From a virus, in the UHGV virus genome UHGV-0084806: DNA of 15,525 nt. One strand, written 5' to 3'. Shown here one piece after another: positions 89-9,611 of the stretch (positions are counted from its first letter, which is position 1; each line of letters begins with the position of its first letter). Made by a program: the position numbers and the translations under genes. The notes beneath the pieces are model-generated. The model was not told the DNA's origin, did no database searches, and saw only the letters and a list, made by a program, of their open reading frames with translations.

Positions 89-1615
89 ATGAAAAAAGCC
101 ATAGCATATATGCGATTTTCATCACCAGGTCAGATGTCTGGCGACTCATTAAACCGACAGAGAAGACTTATTGCTGAATGGTTAAAGGTAAATAGTGATT
201 ATTATCTTGATACCATAACATATGAAGATTTAGGATTAAGTGCATTCAAAGGAAAGCATGCACAATCAGGAGCTTTTTCGGAATTTTTAGATGCTATAGA
301 GCATGGTTATATATTGCCAGGAACTACATTGTTAGTTGAAAGTCTGGACAGACTTTCAAGAGAAAAAGTCGGTGAAGCGATTGAACGTCTGAAATTGATT
401 TTGAATCACGGTATTGATGTTATAACTCTTTGCGACAATACAGTCTATAATATTGACTCTTTGAATGAGCCATATTCATTAATAAAAGCCATACTTATAG
501 CACAAAGGGCAAATGAAGAAAGCGAGATAAAGTCAAGTCGGGTTAAATTATCATGGAAGAAAAAACGGCAGGATGCACTGGAATCAGGTACGATTATGAC
601 GGCGTCTTGTCCGAGATGGCTCTCCTTAGATGACAAAAGAACGGCTTTTGTTCCAGACCCCGACAGGGTGAAAACTATTGAGCTAATTTTTAAACTCAGG
701 ATGGAAAGGCGCTCATTGAATGCAATAGCCAAGTATTTAAATGATCATGCTGTAAAGAATTTCTCAGGAAAAGAAAGTGCATGGGGACCTTCTGTAATTG
801 AAAAATTATTAGCGAATAAAGCTCTGATAGGTATATGCGTACCTTCATATCGTGCAAGAGGTAAAGGAATAAGTGAAATCGCTGGCTATTATCCCAGAGT
901 CATATCAGATGATTTGTTTTACGCTGTACAGGAAATTCGGTTGGCACCTTTTGGTATTAGCAATAGTAGCAAAAATCCTATGTTGATAAATCTACTTCGA
1001 ACAGTTATGAAGTGCGAGGCTTGTGGTAATACCATGATTGTTCATGCGGTATCTGGAAGTTTGCATGGCTATTATGTTTGTCCGATGAGAAGACTGCATC
1101 GATGTGACAGGCCATCAATAAAGAGAGATTTGGTTGATTATAATATCATTAATGAGTTGCTTTTTAATTGTAGTAAAATCCAACCAGTTGAAAACAAGAA
1201 AGATGCTAATGAAACTTTAGAGTTGAAAATTATTGAGCTCCAGATGAAAATTAATAATTTAATTGCTGCATTATCTGTTGCGCCTGAAGTTACCGCTATA
1301 GCAGAAAAAATCAGAGTATTAGATAAGGAATTACGAAGGGCTTCTGTATCATTAAAAACTTTGAAGAGTAAAGCGGTGAGTTCACTTGGTGATTTTCATG
1401 CTATTGACTTAACCAGTAAAAATGGGCGAGAGCTATGTCGTACACTTGCCTATAAAACATTCGAAAAAATCATAATCAATACAGATAATAAAACCTGTGA
1501 TATCTATTTTATGAATGGCATTGTTTTTAAACACTATCCTTTAATGAAAACAATATCCGCCCAGCAGGCGATAAGTACTCTCAAATATATGGTTGATGGT
1601 GAGGTTTATTTTTGA
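89..1615 (+). CDS. Large serine recombinase (resolvase/invertase-type N-terminal catalytic domain with large C-terminal extension); resembles the 508-aa DLP12 YbcK-type recombinase
   Basis: 508-aa ORF. N-terminus AIAYMRFSSPGQ carries the serine-recombinase catalytic Ser motif; a Cys-rich segment (CEACGNT...YYVCPMRRLHRCD) fits a zinc ribbon; the C-terminus looks coiled-coil. AGGTG Shine-Dalgarno about 8 nt upstream. Visibly AT-rich compared with the morphogenesis genes. Confidence 0.8.
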   Translation: MKKAIAYMRFSSPGQMSGDSLNRQRRLIAEWLKVNSDYYLDTITYEDLGLSAFKGKHAQSGAFSEFLDAIEHGYILPGTTLLVESLDRLSREKVGEAIERLKLILNHGIDVITLCDNTVYNIDSLNEPYSLIKAILIAQRANEESEIKSSRVKLSWKKKRQDALESGTIMTASCPRWLSLDDKRTAFVPDPDRVKTIELIFKLRMERRSLNAIAKYLNDHAVKNFSGKESAWGPSVIEKLLANKALIGICVPSYRARGKGISEIAGYYPRVISDDLFYAVQEIRLAPFGISNSSKNPMLINLLRTVMKCEACGNTMIVHAVSGSLHGYYVCPMRRLHRCDRPSIKRDLVDYNIINELLFNCSKIQPVENKKDANETLELKIIELQMKINNLIAALSVAPEVTAIAEKIRVLDKELRRASVSLKTLKSKAVSSLGDFHAIDLTSKNGRELCRTLAYKTFEKIIINTDNKTCDIYFMNGIVFKHYPLMKTISAQQAISTLKYMVDGEVYF

Positions 1616-1726
1616 GTAATAATCACTTTTTCAACCGTGCTATAGTAAGAAAGTTAGGTAAGTACAATAAAATTATCTATCCTGAACGAAGCGTCCTGAG
1701 CTATGGTTTTACTATAGAGACTGCCA

Positions 1727-2050
1727 ATGGATGCTGGCGTTCTCGTTCTAGCAGTTCAACAATACCCAATCACAAAACAATTCACTGATAACGAACTTTG
1801 CACACTCGCCTGGTTATGGCGAGCAGGGAATGTGATGTTAATTACCTACCAGAACGTTACTCCTCTTCTTCAGGTTGCGGAGCATCGTGAAGCTGGTCGC
1901 TTCACTTCTATCGAGCAAGAATATCCCCAGATACTCAATAAGGCACAGGCAATCCTTGCCAGAGAAACGGCACATGTAAAATTCCGGCCGTGGCAGGATG
2001 ATAAGTGGAGTCGAGTTTTGCCGCATTTACGTTCGGATCGATTACAGTAG
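1727..2050 (+). CDS. Hypothetical protein (orphan, 107 aa), possibly a gene remnant
   Basis: Protein-like translation with no motif I recognise. An in-frame TAG at 1715-1717 prevents upstream extension; weak ribosome-binding site. The antisense ORFs overlapping it look like low-complexity junk. Confidence 0.35.
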   Translation: MDAGVLVLAVQQYPITKQFTDNELCTLAWLWRAGNVMLITYQNVTPLLQVAEHREAGRFTSIEQEYPQILNKAQAILARETAHVKFRPWQDDKWSRVLPHLRSDRLQ

Positions 2051-2113
2051 ATTCCAATTAACAATGAGAAACACATAGCCACCCCGTGGTATTGAAACCA
2101 TATAATGTTGGAT

Positions 2114-2143
2114 TTGAAAACAGATCTTTTTCCATGTATTAAT
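2114..2143 (+). promoter_or_regulatory. Candidate sigma70 promoter (TTGAAA, 17-nt spacer, TATTAA with adjacent TG)
   Basis: -35-like TTGAAA at 2114-2119 and -10-like TATTAA at 2137-2142, with TG at 2135-2136. Predicted start site near 2150, reading into the ORF-free island and the ORF at 2512. Confidence 0.3.
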
Positions 2144-2149
2144 AACTAC

Positions 2150-2511
2150 ATCCCCGCGAGTGATTCAAAAAGGAGGGCCCAATTTTGTCCGAGTTTTTGT
2201 ATTCCCCCGCATGCCGCTGCGGAGCACTACATCTGAGTGTCTGACTAGGGGATAAAATTAGACTGGATAGTGAGAAGAAAGTGGCGTGCTAGGCTGTGCC
2301 GAGTGCTACCAGTACACCCTGGGGGTGTGCAGCTTTCGCCGAGACTGTAGTGGGTATCGGTTAATGCACGAAAAACCGAGAGGTCAGACAACCAATTTGC
2401 CGTAGGATTGTTTCCGGTGCGATACCGGTGTACTAACTGAAAGCAATGCGAAAAAGCATAAACTCGGTCCTTCAGTCGCCCTACACACTATTTACTAAGA
2501 AGGGCTAAAGC
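2150..2511 (+). other. ORF-free island; candidate structured non-coding RNA or long 5' leader of the downstream 118-aa ORF
   Basis: The six-frame track has no ORF of 60 aa or more on either strand across about 2083-2511. The island is visibly more GC-rich than the AT-rich ORFs on either side. Several short inverted repeats are visible, e.g. GGTATCG at 2354-2360 pairing with CGATACC at 2421-2427, ACACCC/GGGTGT at about 2314-2328, and CCGAG/CTCGG motifs. Confidence 0.3.
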
Positions 2512-2868
2512 ATGGATACAATTATCACATGGATGGGAGATCGTCTGTTGGGGTGGATAACAAACAAATCCGATCTGCGGCAGAGGGCAATCACTGGATT
2601 AACTCCTGCGATTTATTCAACAATTTTATATACTGAAAAATTAAAACGTGGTGAGCCTAATAACCCAAACGAAGAAGAAAAACTTTATAGGCTTTGGTAT
2701 GAAGCGTCTTCCCAAGTCGTAGACTTTGATCGAGAGCTGGCTAAAAGATGTTTAGATAAATCAGAATATTGGCTTCATTCTGAATTATATAGCCCTGAGA
2801 AAGTTGGAGAGCTAAACATTTCTTTGGTTGGTATGAAGGCAACGCTTGAAGGAATAAAGCACAATTAA
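2512..2868 (+). CDS. Hypothetical protein (orphan, 118 aa, AT-rich)
   Basis: ATG at 2512 preceded by AAGAAGGG (Shine-Dalgarno-like) 6-13 nt upstream. Coherent translation rich in charged residues. No recognisable domain. Confidence 0.55.
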   Translation: MDTIITWMGDRLLGWITNKSDLRQRAITGLTPAIYSTILYTEKLKRGEPNNPNEEEKLYRLWYEASSQVVDFDRELAKRCLDKSEYWLHSELYSPEKVGELNISLVGMKATLEGIKHN

Positions 2869-3055
2869 AACCTTTGATTTGCGATAATCAACTCGCCATA
2901 ATCATGTCATCGGAGCCTGAACAACTCCGGTGACTTCTGCGCTAAACGGGGACGTTTATGCGCACACACAATCCAAACTCTCTTCTCCCTCCACAGATGC
3001 AGAAATGCACCTGCGATATATTGTATCCAGCGTTTGACCTCTGCGGAGGTGAAGC

Positions 3056-3511
3056 GTGAATCTCCCACAAGATGGCATCAAATTACATCGCGGTAACTTC
3101 ACCGCTATCGGTCGGCAGATCCAGCCTTATCTGGAGGAGGGCAAATGCTTTCGCATGGTGCTTAAACCGTGGCGTGAGAAACGCAGTCTTTCCCAGAATG
3201 CACTCAGCCACATGTGGTACAGCGAAATCAGTGAATACCTCATCAGCAGGGGTAAAACGTTCGCTACTCCAGCTTGGGTAAAAGATGCTCTCAAACACAC
3301 ATATCTCGGTTATGAAACCAAAGACCTGGTTGATGTCGTAACCGGTGATATCACCACTATCCAGTCGTTACGCCATACCTCCGATCTTGATACCGGAGAG
3401 ATGTATGTCTTCCTGTGTAAGGTTGAAGCCTGGGCGGTGAATATTGGCTGCCACCTGACTATTCCGCAGAGCTGCGAGTTCCAGCTGCTCCGCGACAAGC
3501 AGGAGGCGTAA
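3056..3511 (+). CDS. ybcN: YbcN-like nin-region protein (DUF1367 family)
   Basis: 151-aa translation ([30 protein letters not shown]...) matches the DLP12 YbcN protein as I remember it. GTG start at 3056 with GGAGGTG Shine-Dalgarno. Stop overlaps the ninE start (TAATG). Confidence 0.8.
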
Positions 3512-4323: not shown

Positions 4324-4460
4324 TGTTTGAGTTTTATATGGCAGAACGTCTTCGCCACCGCTGGGGGCGTCTGCGCTTATATCGTTTCCCCGGTTCTGTT
4401 TTGACCGATTACCGAATACTGAAGAATTACGCCAAAACCCTGACAGGAGCAGGAGTATGA
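4320..4460 (+). CDS. ylcG: YlcG-like small protein (46 aa)
   Basis: Absent from the ORF track. Hand translation from ATG 4320 (overlapping the rusA stop, ATGA) gives [46 protein letters not shown] with stop at 4458-4460. Position after rusA matches DLP12. Confidence 0.55.
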
Positions 4461-4545
4461 AGTCAGAGATAACAATCAACTAATACTGTTTCGTTGATTT
4501 TTGCTTGTAATTGGCGTTCTGGTCTGATTTTTGTGGAGTAAGTTG

Positions 4546-4954: not shown

Positions 4955-5125
4955 TTAAAAATGGGGCGTTGAAACGCCCCCAAAAATAAAGGGTAATATA
5001 TAACAGAAGGTTTGTATAGTTAGAAGCAAGGTTGTGCTTCTAAAGGAAGTGGCTTGAGGGAGCCACTTATATGTTGGGGAGGCAAAGCCTCCCACAACAT
5101 ATCTTTTAGTAATCAAATTAGAACT
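4955..5125 (-). ncRNA. Candidate IpeX-like sRNA / 3' end of the porin transcript, ending at an intrinsic terminator
   Basis: Immediately downstream of the porin stop (5118) on the minus strand there are three hairpins: GGGAGGC-AAA-GCCTCCC (5076-5093), AAGTGGCT...AGCCACTT (about 5048-5069), and GGGGCGTT-GA-AACGCCCC (4962-4979). The last is followed on the minus strand by ATTTTTAATAAC, a U-rich tail. From memory, the DLP12 sRNA IpeX lies at the 3' side of nmpC; exact limits are uncertain. Confidence 0.4.
4962..4979 (-). terminator. Intrinsic terminator hairpin (8-bp GC-rich stem, U-tract on minus strand)
   Basis: GGGGCGTT/AACGCCCC stem with a 2-nt loop; the U-rich run lies on the minus-strand side (reverse complement of 4950-4961). 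Oriented to terminate the porin/IpeX-like transcript. Confidence 0.5.
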
Positions 5126-6200
5126 GGTAAACCATACCTACAGCAACGATATCATCGGTAGCAACGCCAGATGCTTTCGTGAAATCGCTCTTATCAATCA
5201 GGTTGATTTTGTAGTCAACAAAAGTGGACATATTTTTGTTGAAGTAATAGGTTGCACCTACATCAACATATTCAACCAGGTCCTGATCACCCCAAACACC
5301 CAAGTCTTTTCCTTTAGAATGCAGGTAAGCAACGGATGGACGCAGGCCGAAGTCGAACTGATATTGTGCAACAGCTTCGAAGTTTTGTGCTTTGTTGGCA
5401 ATATGGTTATTACCAAAAACAGTCATGTTCTGGGTTTCAGAATAGGTGGTGGCCAGATAGATGTTGTTCGCATCATATTTCAGACCAGCTGCCCATACTT
5501 CAGCATTTTGACCAGAAGCATTCAGACCGTTGTTACCGTAGATAACCTGATTATTAGTGCGATCAGATTTAGCATAGGTTGCACCCACGCCGAATCCTTC
5601 ATACTCATAAGTAGTTGAGAAACCGAAACCATCGCCATTAGCTTCAGTTACTTCATTTCGGTCATTTTTGCCCTGATACTGAGCTGCAAAGTTCAGGCCA
5701 TCAACCAGACCAAAGAAGTCGTTGTTACGATAAGTTGCAACACCTGTGGTGCGACCAGTCATGAATACATCTGTTTGGGTCCAGGTATCGCCACCGAATT
5801 CTGGCAGAACGTCAGTCCACGCACCGATGTCGTATGCTACACCGTAGTTACGGCCGTAATCGATTGAGCCGTAGTCACCGAATTTCAGGCCTGCAAATGC
5901 AAGACGGGTTTTGTCTTTGGAGGAACCTTGAGATTCAGCGCGGTTGCCTTTGAATTCATATTCCCACTGACCGAAACCAGTCAGTTGATCGTTGATTTGG
6001 GTTTCACCTTTGAAGCCAAGACGGGCATAAGTAGTATCACCATCATCTGCATCATTAGAGGAGAAGTAGTGCTTAGCATTAACTTTCCCGTACAGATCCA
6101 GCTTGTTACTGTCTTTATTATAAATTTCAGCTGCCTGAGCAGACATCGCCATCAGTACTGATGCAGCTACAGCAGAAATTGCCACTGTTAATTTTTTCAT
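5118..6200 (-). CDS. nmpC: Outer membrane porin, OmpC/OmpF/NmpC family (prophage moron)
   Basis: 360-aa ORF with a signal peptide ([30 protein letters not shown]), the porin-family signature, and a C-terminal ...VGMVYQF ending in Phe, typical of beta-barrel proteins. Encoded antisense between Q and the lysis genes, as nmpC is in DLP12. Confidence 0.9.
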
Positions 6201-7990: not shown

Positions 7991-8284
7991 TTATTGTGAG
8001 CAATACACACGCGCTTCCAGCGGAGTATAAATGCCTAAAGTAATAAAACCGAGAAATCCATTTACGAATGTTTGCTGGGTTTCTGTTTTAACAACATTTT
8101 CTGCGCCGCCACAAATTTTGGCTGCATCAACAGTTTTCTCCTGTCCAATTCCCGAAACGAAGAAGTGATGGGTGATGGTTTCCTTTGGTGTTACTGCTGT
8201 CGGTTTGTTTCCAACAGTAAACGTCTGTTGAGCACATCCTGTAATAAGCATTGCCAGAGCGGCAGAAAACAACATTTTTTTCAT
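7991..8284 (-). CDS. bor: Bor lipoprotein (serum-resistance lysogenic-conversion protein)
   Basis: The track ORF is 113 aa; the likely start is the internal Met giving a 97-aa product (MKKMLFSAALAMLITGCAQQTFTV...) with lipobox LITGC. Closely matches lambda Bor from memory. Confidence 0.85.
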   Translation of the reverse strand: MKKMLFSAALAMLITGCAQQTFTVGNKPTAVTPKETITHHFFVSGIGQEKTVDAAKICGGAENVVKTETQQTFVNGFLGFITLGIYTPLEARVYCSQ

Positions 8285-9411: not shown

Positions 9412-9611
9412 CCCGCCAGATGTTTGCGCAGAAGGTGTCGGCATATACCGGCCTGTCCGTGCAGGCTGTGCTGGATACCGAGGCTGCAGTGTACAGCGGT
9501 CAGGAGGCCATTGATGCCGGACTGGCTGATGAACTTGTCAACAGCACCGATGCGATCACCGTCATGCGTGATGCACTGGATGCACGTAAATCCCGACTCT
9601 CAGGAGGGCGA
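9412..9611 (+). pseudogene. Remnant of the 3' end of head gene C (protease/scaffold fusion), lacking start and catalytic region
   Basis: In the nu3 frame, ...QMFAQKVSAYTGLSVQAVLDTEAAVYSGQEAIDAGLADELVNSTDAITVMRDALDARKSRLSGGR matches the C-terminal part of lambda gpC just upstream of the nested nu3 start. No upstream C sequence is present. Confidence 0.7.

Follow-up and report, generated by a model that had tools for sequence, protein, structure and literature searches.

A conserved, covarying element, probably a structured RNA, in the exchangeable cargo slot of DLP12-like prophages

The DNA analyzed here, hereafter the window, comprises the 15,525 nucleotides (nt) of virus genome UHGV-0084806 and is an Escherichia coli DLP12-like lambdoid prophage. 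Its genes are arranged in the order ybcK, a block at 1616-3055, ybcN/ninB, ninE, ybcO, rusA, ylcG, quuD, an ompC/nmpC-type porin gene on the minus strand, and lysis and head genes. The block holds two open reading frames (ORFs) of 107 and 118 amino acids (aa), here called ORF1 and ORF2, and no ORF of at least 60 aa occurs between them (2051-2511). An earlier examination of the letters alone, which we call the sequence-only reading, had described this stretch as an ORF-free island of roughly 430 bp and as a non-coding core. The island is real, although its length is 461 bp, and it is not featureless: it holds an element of approximately 332 nt that, judging from the alignment of its copies, is a conserved, covarying and strand-specific structured RNA fold (Table 1).

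Table 1. Features in and around the block, in window coordinates.
Feature	Position	Strand	Basis or remark
ybcK, serine-recombinase family	89-1615	+	ORF list and RefSeq annotation of collinear records; left conserved flank, outside the cargo
ORF1, 107 aa, stand-alone antirepressor C-terminal domain (P22_AR_C)	1727-2050	+	Pfam, PHROG
Promoter-like site of the element	2114-2143	+	predicted from the upstream sequences of 27 distinct copies
-35-like hexamer TTGAAA	2114-2119	+	followed by an 18-nt spacer
-10-like hexamer ATTAAT	2138-2143 (or TATTAA, 2137-2142)	+	hexamer conservation
Conserved structured non-coding RNA element, ~332 nt	2150-2481	+	nhmmer, RNAalifold, G-U strand counts
5′ domain of the element	2150-2253	+	nearly invariant
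3′ domain of the element	closed by 2261-2266/2472-2477	+	consensus fold
Best-supported covarying helices	2270-2274/2365-2369; 2277-2282/2332-2337; 2283-2288/2304-2310	+	RNAalifold
Best-supported covarying helices	2338-2346/2353-2361 (up to five pair types per position); 2408-2418/2424-2433	+	RNAalifold
ORF2, 118 aa, orphan helical protein (phrog_12412)	2512-2868	+	starts 30 nt past the RNA, no terminator between
Right conserved flank	2873-3055	+	~91% identity to K-12 DLP12; holds ylcH and overlaps the ybcN start
ylcH, 33 aa	2958-3059	+	annotation; inside the right flank
ybcN (ninB family), first nin-region gene	3056-3511	+	ORF list and RefSeq annotation; flank

Searches with nhmmer recovered full-length copies of the element in 94 loci, one copy per locus, and these copies represent 33 distinct sequences with 78-100% identity to the window. 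The carriers are phage, prophage and metagenome loci of E. coli, Klebsiella, Enterobacter and Obesumbacterium; the Obesumbacterium and Enterobacter copies were found via the loci of ORF2 homologues, and a metagenome scan supplied 26 additional loci. Three different invariant signatures each retrieved essentially the same set of approximately 60 IMG/VR contigs, and the IMG/VR match L073 and the match L057 were chance matches. Among 5426 complete E. coli genomes, 159 (~3%) carry the element, and it is absent from the plasmid collection. Its boundaries are sharp and are the same whatever the lineage. In a sensitive BLAST search of 2040-2880 against phage genomes, two Klebsiella phages matched only window ~2124-2478, at 78% identity. 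An E. coli prophage with quite different neighbors matches ~2150-2467 at 83%. Similarity among independent lineages drops cleanly on both sides, ending ~60-70 nt upstream of ATCCCC and directly past CAGTCGCC. Within these limits, long invariant blocks alternate with variable stretches that keep their hairpin potential, and the nucleotide sequence is far better conserved than the neighboring sequence.

The element always lies between the replication genes and the nin genes, across different lambdoid backbones and in at least four Enterobacterales genera. Depending on the lineage, it is followed by an ORF2 homologue, by a 183-aa protein (Klebsiella phages), by a 178-191-aa protein with an N-terminal hydrophobic segment, by a 93-aa protein, or directly by the nin genes, and the 183-, 178-191- and 93-aa proteins belong to no known family. 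The element is a self-contained module heading a variable region.

The consensus fold was computed by RNAalifold from 17 sequences, none of which is more than 98.5% identical to another. It consists of 92 pairs in 18 helices, and 20 of the pairs display compensatory changes on both sides, with single pairs represented by up to five pair types. In this fold, 98.0% of the alignment cells can pair, compared with 33-46% when the 3′ partners are slid by 1-3 columns. Moreover, doubly changed cells number 106 against 39 in shuffled alignments, and the covariation score is 0.245 against 0.133, a value that none of 500 shuffles reached. The fold also distinguishes the two strands: G-U cells number 179 and A-C cells only 2, and 98.0% of the cells are paired on the plus strand as against 86.7% on the minus strand. 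Because G-U cells so far exceed A-C cells, the fold works on the plus strand and not on its complement. Thermodynamics alone would have missed the element, and the z-scores of single-sequence folding are non-significant on both strands. An invariant GUCUGAC of the 5′ domain (2239-2245) is exactly complementary to an invariant GUCAGAC in a hairpin loop of the 3′ domain (2383-2389); the two may form a long-range or tertiary pairing, a 7-mer match being expected by chance in 332 nt and neither side varying.

The variation within the element does not resemble that of a coding sequence. Variable alignment columns are distributed over the codon phases as 47/42/47, which is no periodicity; the synonymous share of single-base codon differences is 0.26-0.33 in all six frames; and stops occur in every plus-strand frame. 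Coding readings were rejected on both strands, including minus-strand open frames of 95-179 codons in some copies and a plus-strand mini-ORF that combines a Shine-Dalgarno sequence with a TTG start. The record of phage Turner annotates two small hypothetical coding sequences here (L007 4066-4197 and 4247-4366, corresponding to window 2105-2236 and 2286-2405), and the Prokaryotic Genome Annotation Pipeline (PGAP) calls nothing in the stretch. Because the stretch carries no coding signal, the two annotated sequences are probably spurious.

Upstream of the fold, the -35-like and -10-like hexamers are conserved and the sequence of the 17-18-nt spacer is free to vary, in all lineages but one recombinant (60 nt upstream). 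The hexamers of the other lineages are TTGAAT or TTGTAT and, 17 nt further on, TTTAAT or TTAAAT. The first base of the first helix lies 6-7 nt past the -10-like box (7 nt in the window, at 2150). It is plausible from this arrangement that the hexamers form a sigma-70-like promoter of the element. A further conserved block, CCATATGTTGTATAGTTGAA, lies at ~2095-2119, just upstream of the -35 box and overlapping it, and is clearer in L026, L054, L060 and L091; part of this block forms a palindrome in some lineages, and it may serve as a site for an activator or as an operator. At the other end, most lineages carry a GC hairpin and a T-run 7-16 nt past the last helix. Two types occupy the same place, CCGCC-N4-GGCGG-T7-8 in several variants and GCCACC-GAAA-GGTGG-T6, and the terminator of L053 was called by the scan at 9451-9468, 4 nt past the RNA end. 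The window lineage and three others have no terminator, and in these the ORF2 homologue starts ~30-34 nt past the element.

The slot in which the element lies can be delimited by comparison with other prophages. In K-12, the counterpart slot is occupied by ybcL and ybcM, with the 33-aa ylcH ORF and ybcN next in order. The sequence-only reading held that the block takes the place of ybcL, ybcM and ylcH together; ybcL and ybcM are indeed gone, replaced by window 1616-2872, but ylcH is kept. Its expectation that alignment across related prophages would reveal a strain-specific replacement proved correct, since megablast found the entire block in only 95 of the 5426 complete E. coli genomes; an identical block is also present in phages Turner and IdasGreatGrand, which were detected in the BLAST search of phage genomes. 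Three kinds of partial match delimit the modules of the block. Approximately 2850-2900 further E. coli genomes, K-12 included, match only query positions ~1254-1440, which are the right conserved flank, and because these matches begin at query position 1254-1258, the right edge of the variable block lies at ~2872. E. coli EC-10 (L004) has ybcK, ORF1 and the ylcH flank in common with the window and carries between them a gene for a 309-aa protein (L004 3634-4563), in the slot equivalent to window 2051-2872, between the P22_AR_C ORF and ylcH-ybcN. This protein is BstA (PADLOC BstA, E 4e-121; PHROG 6287, E 2e-136), a characterized prophage abortive-infection protein (PMC8585504). Finally, HE302 and its relatives have window 1962-3055 in common, and ren and a TagO-like gene replace emrE-ylcJ-ybcK-ORF1 upstream.

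The matches of EC-10 and HE302 indicate that the exchangeable cargo of the window is ~2051-2872 and that ORF1 belongs to the flank. The block is therefore a mosaic of an ORF1 flank, a cargo module of ~820 bp and a ylcH-ybcN flank. The location is a genuine cargo-exchange slot of DLP12-like and lambdoid prophages, as had been supposed, with ybcL/ybcM in K-12, BstA in EC-10 and the present block in the window. The further supposition of anti-phage cargo fits the BstA gene of EC-10, but nothing marks the window copy as a defense system. Similarly, the block was thought to be the likely home of an undescribed system, and an undescribed unit is indeed present, but that unit is the RNA element and not the two ORFs. 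The proposed pattern of AT-rich ORFs around a GC-rich core is true of ORF2 (35-39% GC) but not of ORF1 (46-50%), which is like the core (49-53%); ybcK has 33-36%.

Both ORFs, described beforehand as unrecognizable, are present, but only ORF2 is an orphan. ORF1 matches the complete P22_AR_C domain (Pfam PF10548, E 1.1e-15, profile positions 3-73 of 73) and, over its full length, phrog_7640 (E 9e-73), which is itself 107 aa long. It aligns solely to the C-terminal ends of Ant PHROGs (245-318 of 319, 116-207 of 213 and 193-284 of 288), and the N-terminal Ant/BRO-type domain of the Ant/Roi proteins (~210-320 aa) is not present in its 107 aa. ORF1 is widespread among E. coli prophages, O157 included, and it is part of the flank and not cargo because it also lies beside BstA in EC-10.

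ORF2 has no match in Pfam, NCBIfam or PADLOC. Its close homologues form only 21 clusters, in Enterobacterales, and a profile search of 1.8 billion representatives yielded 351 remote relatives, mostly unannotated proteins of 120-135 aa. Structure prediction had been recommended for both ORFs, of which ORF1 was recognized by Pfam; the AlphaFold2 model of ORF2 (predicted local distance difference test score, pLDDT, 79) shows a four-helix bundle, for which Foldseek gave no significant match in PDB (best E 0.3) or BFVD (best E 0.2), and a profile search found no sequence relative in PDB. The 309-aa protein P0073 combines an ORF2-like helical domain at residues 15-107 with a C-terminal TIR domain (TIR_2, E 4e-18), and this fusion is the sole functional hint for the family. 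Scans of 19 other ORF2-family proteins, mostly fusions, found nothing above the Pfam cut-offs in 18 of them, and the match of P0116 is below the curated cut-off.

In the window lineage, 30 nt and no terminator separate the RNA from the start of ORF2, and ORF2 is probably co-transcribed with the RNA. Its homologues following the element in E. coli, Obesumbacterium and Enterobacter have 69-79% aa identity, and relatives of at most 51% identity have holE-like genes beside them and prophage integrases nearby but lack the RNA upstream. In the HE302/204446 lineage of E. coli, which includes dozens of genomes, ORF2 carries frameshifting indels and a 134-bp deletion bracketed precisely by an 11-nt direct repeat, TTGGTATGAAG (window 2694-2704 and 2828-2838). 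The RNA of this lineage is at least 96% identical, and the HE302 copy matches window 2040-2520, comprising the RNA and its flanks, at 97.7% identity despite its decayed ORF2. ORF2 is an optional neighbor and not an obligatory partner of the element.

We consider it reasonably probable that the element is an independently transcribed, trans-acting structured RNA of ~332 nt that is carried as prophage cargo, an "RNA moron". Transcription would start at ~2150 from the conserved -35-like and -10-like boxes and, in most lineages, would end at the intrinsic terminator past the last helix. In the window lineage, transcription would continue from the RNA into ORF2, with the RNA forming the 5′ portion of the transcript, and ORF2 would be dispensable for the action of the RNA. 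The RNA would be made by the resident prophage, and the folded molecule would act in trans, probably bound to protein or as a decoy and not as a short base-pairing small RNA. Invariant junctions combined with covarying helices are typical of RNAs in which the three-dimensional shape is the functional unit. Because the junctions and loops of the element are invariant and its stems are free to covary, a shape-dependent action as a ribonucleoprotein (RNP) or decoy is favored over seed pairing. A more far-reaching proposal, for which we see only a modest chance, is that the RNA represents a new class of large structured RNA that serves as an RNA-only or RNP effector, for example as a decoy or sensor against superinfecting phages or in the reprogramming of host proteins.

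Pairing of the RNA with targets inside the window was considered and rejected. A segment of 12 nt in ybcN (3355-3366) is complementary to RNA 2261-2272, and 11 nt with one G-U pair in ylcH (3032-3042), just upstream of the ybcN start, are complementary to 2379-2389. Both matches are at chance level and do not persist where the sequence of the RNA or of ninB diverges; the ybcN site, for example, is not kept in Klebsiella phage ninB. A CsrB-like sponge was likewise rejected, as the five GGA motifs in 332 nt are about the number expected by chance.

Several observations weigh against an independent, trans-acting RNA. The -10-like box has T and not A at -11 in all lineages, a scan for consensus sigma-70 promoters does not call the site, and the window copy lacks a terminator. 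Folded as a single sequence, neither the element (z = -0.8) nor the whole gap (z = -0.4) is remarkably stable, and the minimum free energy structure of the single sequence is not the consensus fold. Covariation neither supports nor contradicts the 5′ domain and several of the 3′ helices, which show no variation. Because the family is narrow (at least 78% identity, few clades), independent compensatory events are modest in number, and kinship among the sequences inflates the contrast with the shuffle control. Signature scans of 185,579 species-representative genomes did not find the element, which is hence sporadic; the first signature gave no matches there, and the approximately 10 matches of the second were at chance level in unrelated phyla (L076-L085) and were discarded. 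Furthermore, both the 5′ and the 3′ end of the RNA are predicted from sequence.

The main rival to an independent RNA is a cis-acting leader, that is, a riboswitch-like element, attenuator or processive antiterminator that gates the downstream cargo, the nin genes or the translation of ORF2. Promoter, structured RNA, intrinsic terminator and an ORF with its ribosome-binding site follow one another in the classic order of a terminator-based leader, the RNA is always oriented as the downstream genes, and one conserved leader before different genes is usual for riboswitches. In the window, pairing of GCCCU (2476-2480) with AGGGC (2500-2504) could moreover mask the Shine-Dalgarno region of ORF2. 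However, 7-16 non-conserved nt separate the terminator from the last conserved helix, and the terminator differs in sequence from lineage to lineage, is absent in several and does not interlock with the fold in the way expected of an expression platform. Typical leaders are far smaller than 332 nt with 18 helices, no common function or family unites the downstream genes, and in one lineage the nin genes follow directly. Nor is a boxA/boxB pair present, the only boxB-like hairpin (AUGC-GAAAAA-GCAU, 2446-2459) having a loop of 6 nt and no boxA upstream. Because the terminator is not interlocked with the fold and varies or is missing, and because the downstream genes are unrelated, we favor the independent RNA and regard a cis-acting leader as unlikely, though a serious contender. 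A two-component system is more doubtful still. According to this explanation, the RNA and ORF2 act as a pair similar to a type III toxin-antitoxin (TA) system or as an RNP, possibly in phage exclusion; it gains from the adjacency of the two at ~30-34 nt without a terminator in at least three genera despite the divergence of ORF2, from the bona fide defense gene BstA in the same slot of other strains, and from the remote TIR fusion in P0073. Nevertheless, ORF2 is missing from approximately half of the RNA lineages, is inactivated in dozens of E. coli genomes that retain the RNA, and has distant relatives without the RNA. The RNA has no tandem repeats, and Pfam, PADLOC, NCBIfam and fold searches revealed no nuclease or toxin signature in ORF2.

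A further explanation is that the element is no RNA gene and owes its conservation to a role of the DNA itself, for instance as a single-stranded site that folds, a site of recombination or an array of protein-binding sites, or else that it is a decaying coding sequence that has recently spread. The family is indeed young and narrow, its single-sequence stability is unremarkable, its promoter is non-canonical, and minus-strand frames remain open in some copies; a folded single-stranded site of the plus strand is compatible with the sequence evidence. This explanation is nevertheless very improbable in our estimation, as there is no synonymous excess or 3-periodicity in any frame, 20 pairs are kept by compensatory changes, the excess of G-U over A-C indicates that one specific strand folds, and a promoter-like site and a terminator bracket the element in matching orientation. 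We assign the least credit of all to an mRNA for a small protein, such as a type I toxin or leader peptide, encoded by a 19-codon ORF (2185-2244). A perfect AAGGAGG precedes its TTG start (2185-2187) by 8 nt, and the frame is open to its stop (2242-2244) in most copies. However, most substitutions in the ORF change the amino acid and do not lie at third positions, a premature TGA (TGC TGA) interrupts it in the HE302 lineage, the peptide is not hydrophobic, and most of the 332 nt and all of the covarying helices lie outside the ORF.

The element has no match in Rfam 15 on either strand (cmscan, E<=1 on 1500-3200 and E<=10 on 2140-2515), and ARAGORN found no tRNA or tmRNA. By architecture, its closest relatives are lambda 6S RNA and StxS (the PR'-tR' transcript of Stx phages), and by type they are GOLLD and ROOL, although it is a member of neither group. 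Lambda 6S and StxS are short promoter-to-terminator transcripts of lambdoid prophages (PMC7547250). They lie directly after the Q antiterminator gene as by-products of Q-regulated late transcription, have simple structures and measure ~70-200 nt (PMC7547250). The element resembles them as a unit of promoter, RNA and intrinsic terminator in a lambdoid prophage that is oriented as the downstream genes, and a unit of the lambda 6S/StxS type can be produced by a lysogen and function in trans. In contrast, the position of the element is upstream of Q, between the replication genes and the nin genes; it measures ~332 nt with ~18 helices, is accessory (~3% of E. coli genomes) and has no sequence in common with them. 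In common with GOLLD and ROOL, which are often carried by prophages and have been studied by cryo-EM (10.1101/2024.12.08.627333), it is a large multi-helix RNA borne by phages and prophages, with invariant junctions and covarying helices, no known function and no obligatory adjacent protein partner. It differs from them in the lack of any sequence or structure match (Rfam cmscan), in its size (332 nt vs ~580-800 nt), in its occurrence in Enterobacterales and not in Lactobacillales or lake and rumen samples, and in not being tied to tRNA clusters.

The arrangement of promoter, non-coding RNA, terminator and small protein gene also recalls the type III TA systems ToxIN, CptIN and TenpIN, which are mobile anti-phage elements. 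The antitoxin RNAs of such systems are tandem repeats cut by the toxin. In window 1600-3100, however, Tandem Repeats Finder detected no array with a score of at least 30, and a repeat search gave only short two-copy chance matches. The proteins downstream of the element are unrelated to ToxN/AbiQ and vary by lineage, and ORF2 does not have the features of a ToxN/AbiQ-type endoribonuclease, being a four-helix bundle with no match in the Pfam, PADLOC and NCBIfam searches. Type I TA systems of the hok/sok kind are not matched either, as the element has no conserved small hydrophobic toxin ORF and no match to a Sok family in Rfam. No reverse-transcriptase gene of the kind found in retrons or defense-associated reverse transcriptase (DRT) systems is present in the window or in the flanks of the other lineages. 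The lambda nut sites with boxA and boxB and the HK022 put sites are structured RNAs of ~15-75 nt that are transcribed in cis in the early-right operon, just after PL/PR. The hairpin at 2446-2459 superficially recalls the boxB of nut sites, a reading that was rejected for its missing boxA. The loop has 6 instead of 5 nt, and the element differs from nut and put in being an accessory module with a promoter-like site of its own. The BstA locus (PMC8585504) shares with it the exact same slot in EC-10. The difference is that BstA is a 309-aa protein, and the PADLOC and PHROG models of BstA match neither window ORF; nhmmer did not find the RNA in the BstA variant of the slot. The svsR and Pas small RNAs and the UG27 non-coding RNA arrays of the literature were considered and are different elements.

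The element thus matches no catalogued RNA family, its signature strings are absent from the searchable literature, and no prior description was found, the coverage of the literature being incomplete. Few bacterial RNAs are both large and intricately folded, and the majority of the classes known have proved to be ribozymes, riboswitches or RNP scaffolds. An unannotated structured RNA in prophages of E. coli and Klebsiella would be directly testable in the easiest genetic systems. Its position at the entrance of a slot that can carry BstA makes it a candidate for RNA-based conflict between phages or between phage and host. If its role is regulatory, it would add a new element, acting in cis or in trans, to the control of lambdoid accessory genes; if it is an effector, an RNA would head a slot for the exchange of defense genes in lambda-like phages of the best-studied bacterium. 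For annotators, the element provides a reason against calling ORFs in this stretch and a conserved anchor for locating the cargo slots of lambdoid prophages.

Outside the block, the window differs from related prophages at several points. At window ~9410, a segment of ~4.77 kb is absent relative to strain KK05-19 (L119 9409-14175). The missing segment takes in most of nohD, the genes for the large terminase subunit, head-tail joining and portal proteins, and the 5′ part of the S49 protease gene. Because the terminase, portal and head-tail genes are absent, the window prophage should, on its gene content, be unable to package DNA. In E. coli E7476, ISCro1 of the IS66 family is inserted between ylcG and quuD (L001 10950-13565), and the corresponding junction of the window (4460-4531) is uninterrupted. 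The ompC/nmpC-type porin gene, between quuD and the lysis genes, is intact in the window (5118-6200, minus strand), and the copy in K-12 DLP12 is interrupted by IS5. An iss/bor lipoprotein gene lies at 7991-8284 on the minus strand.

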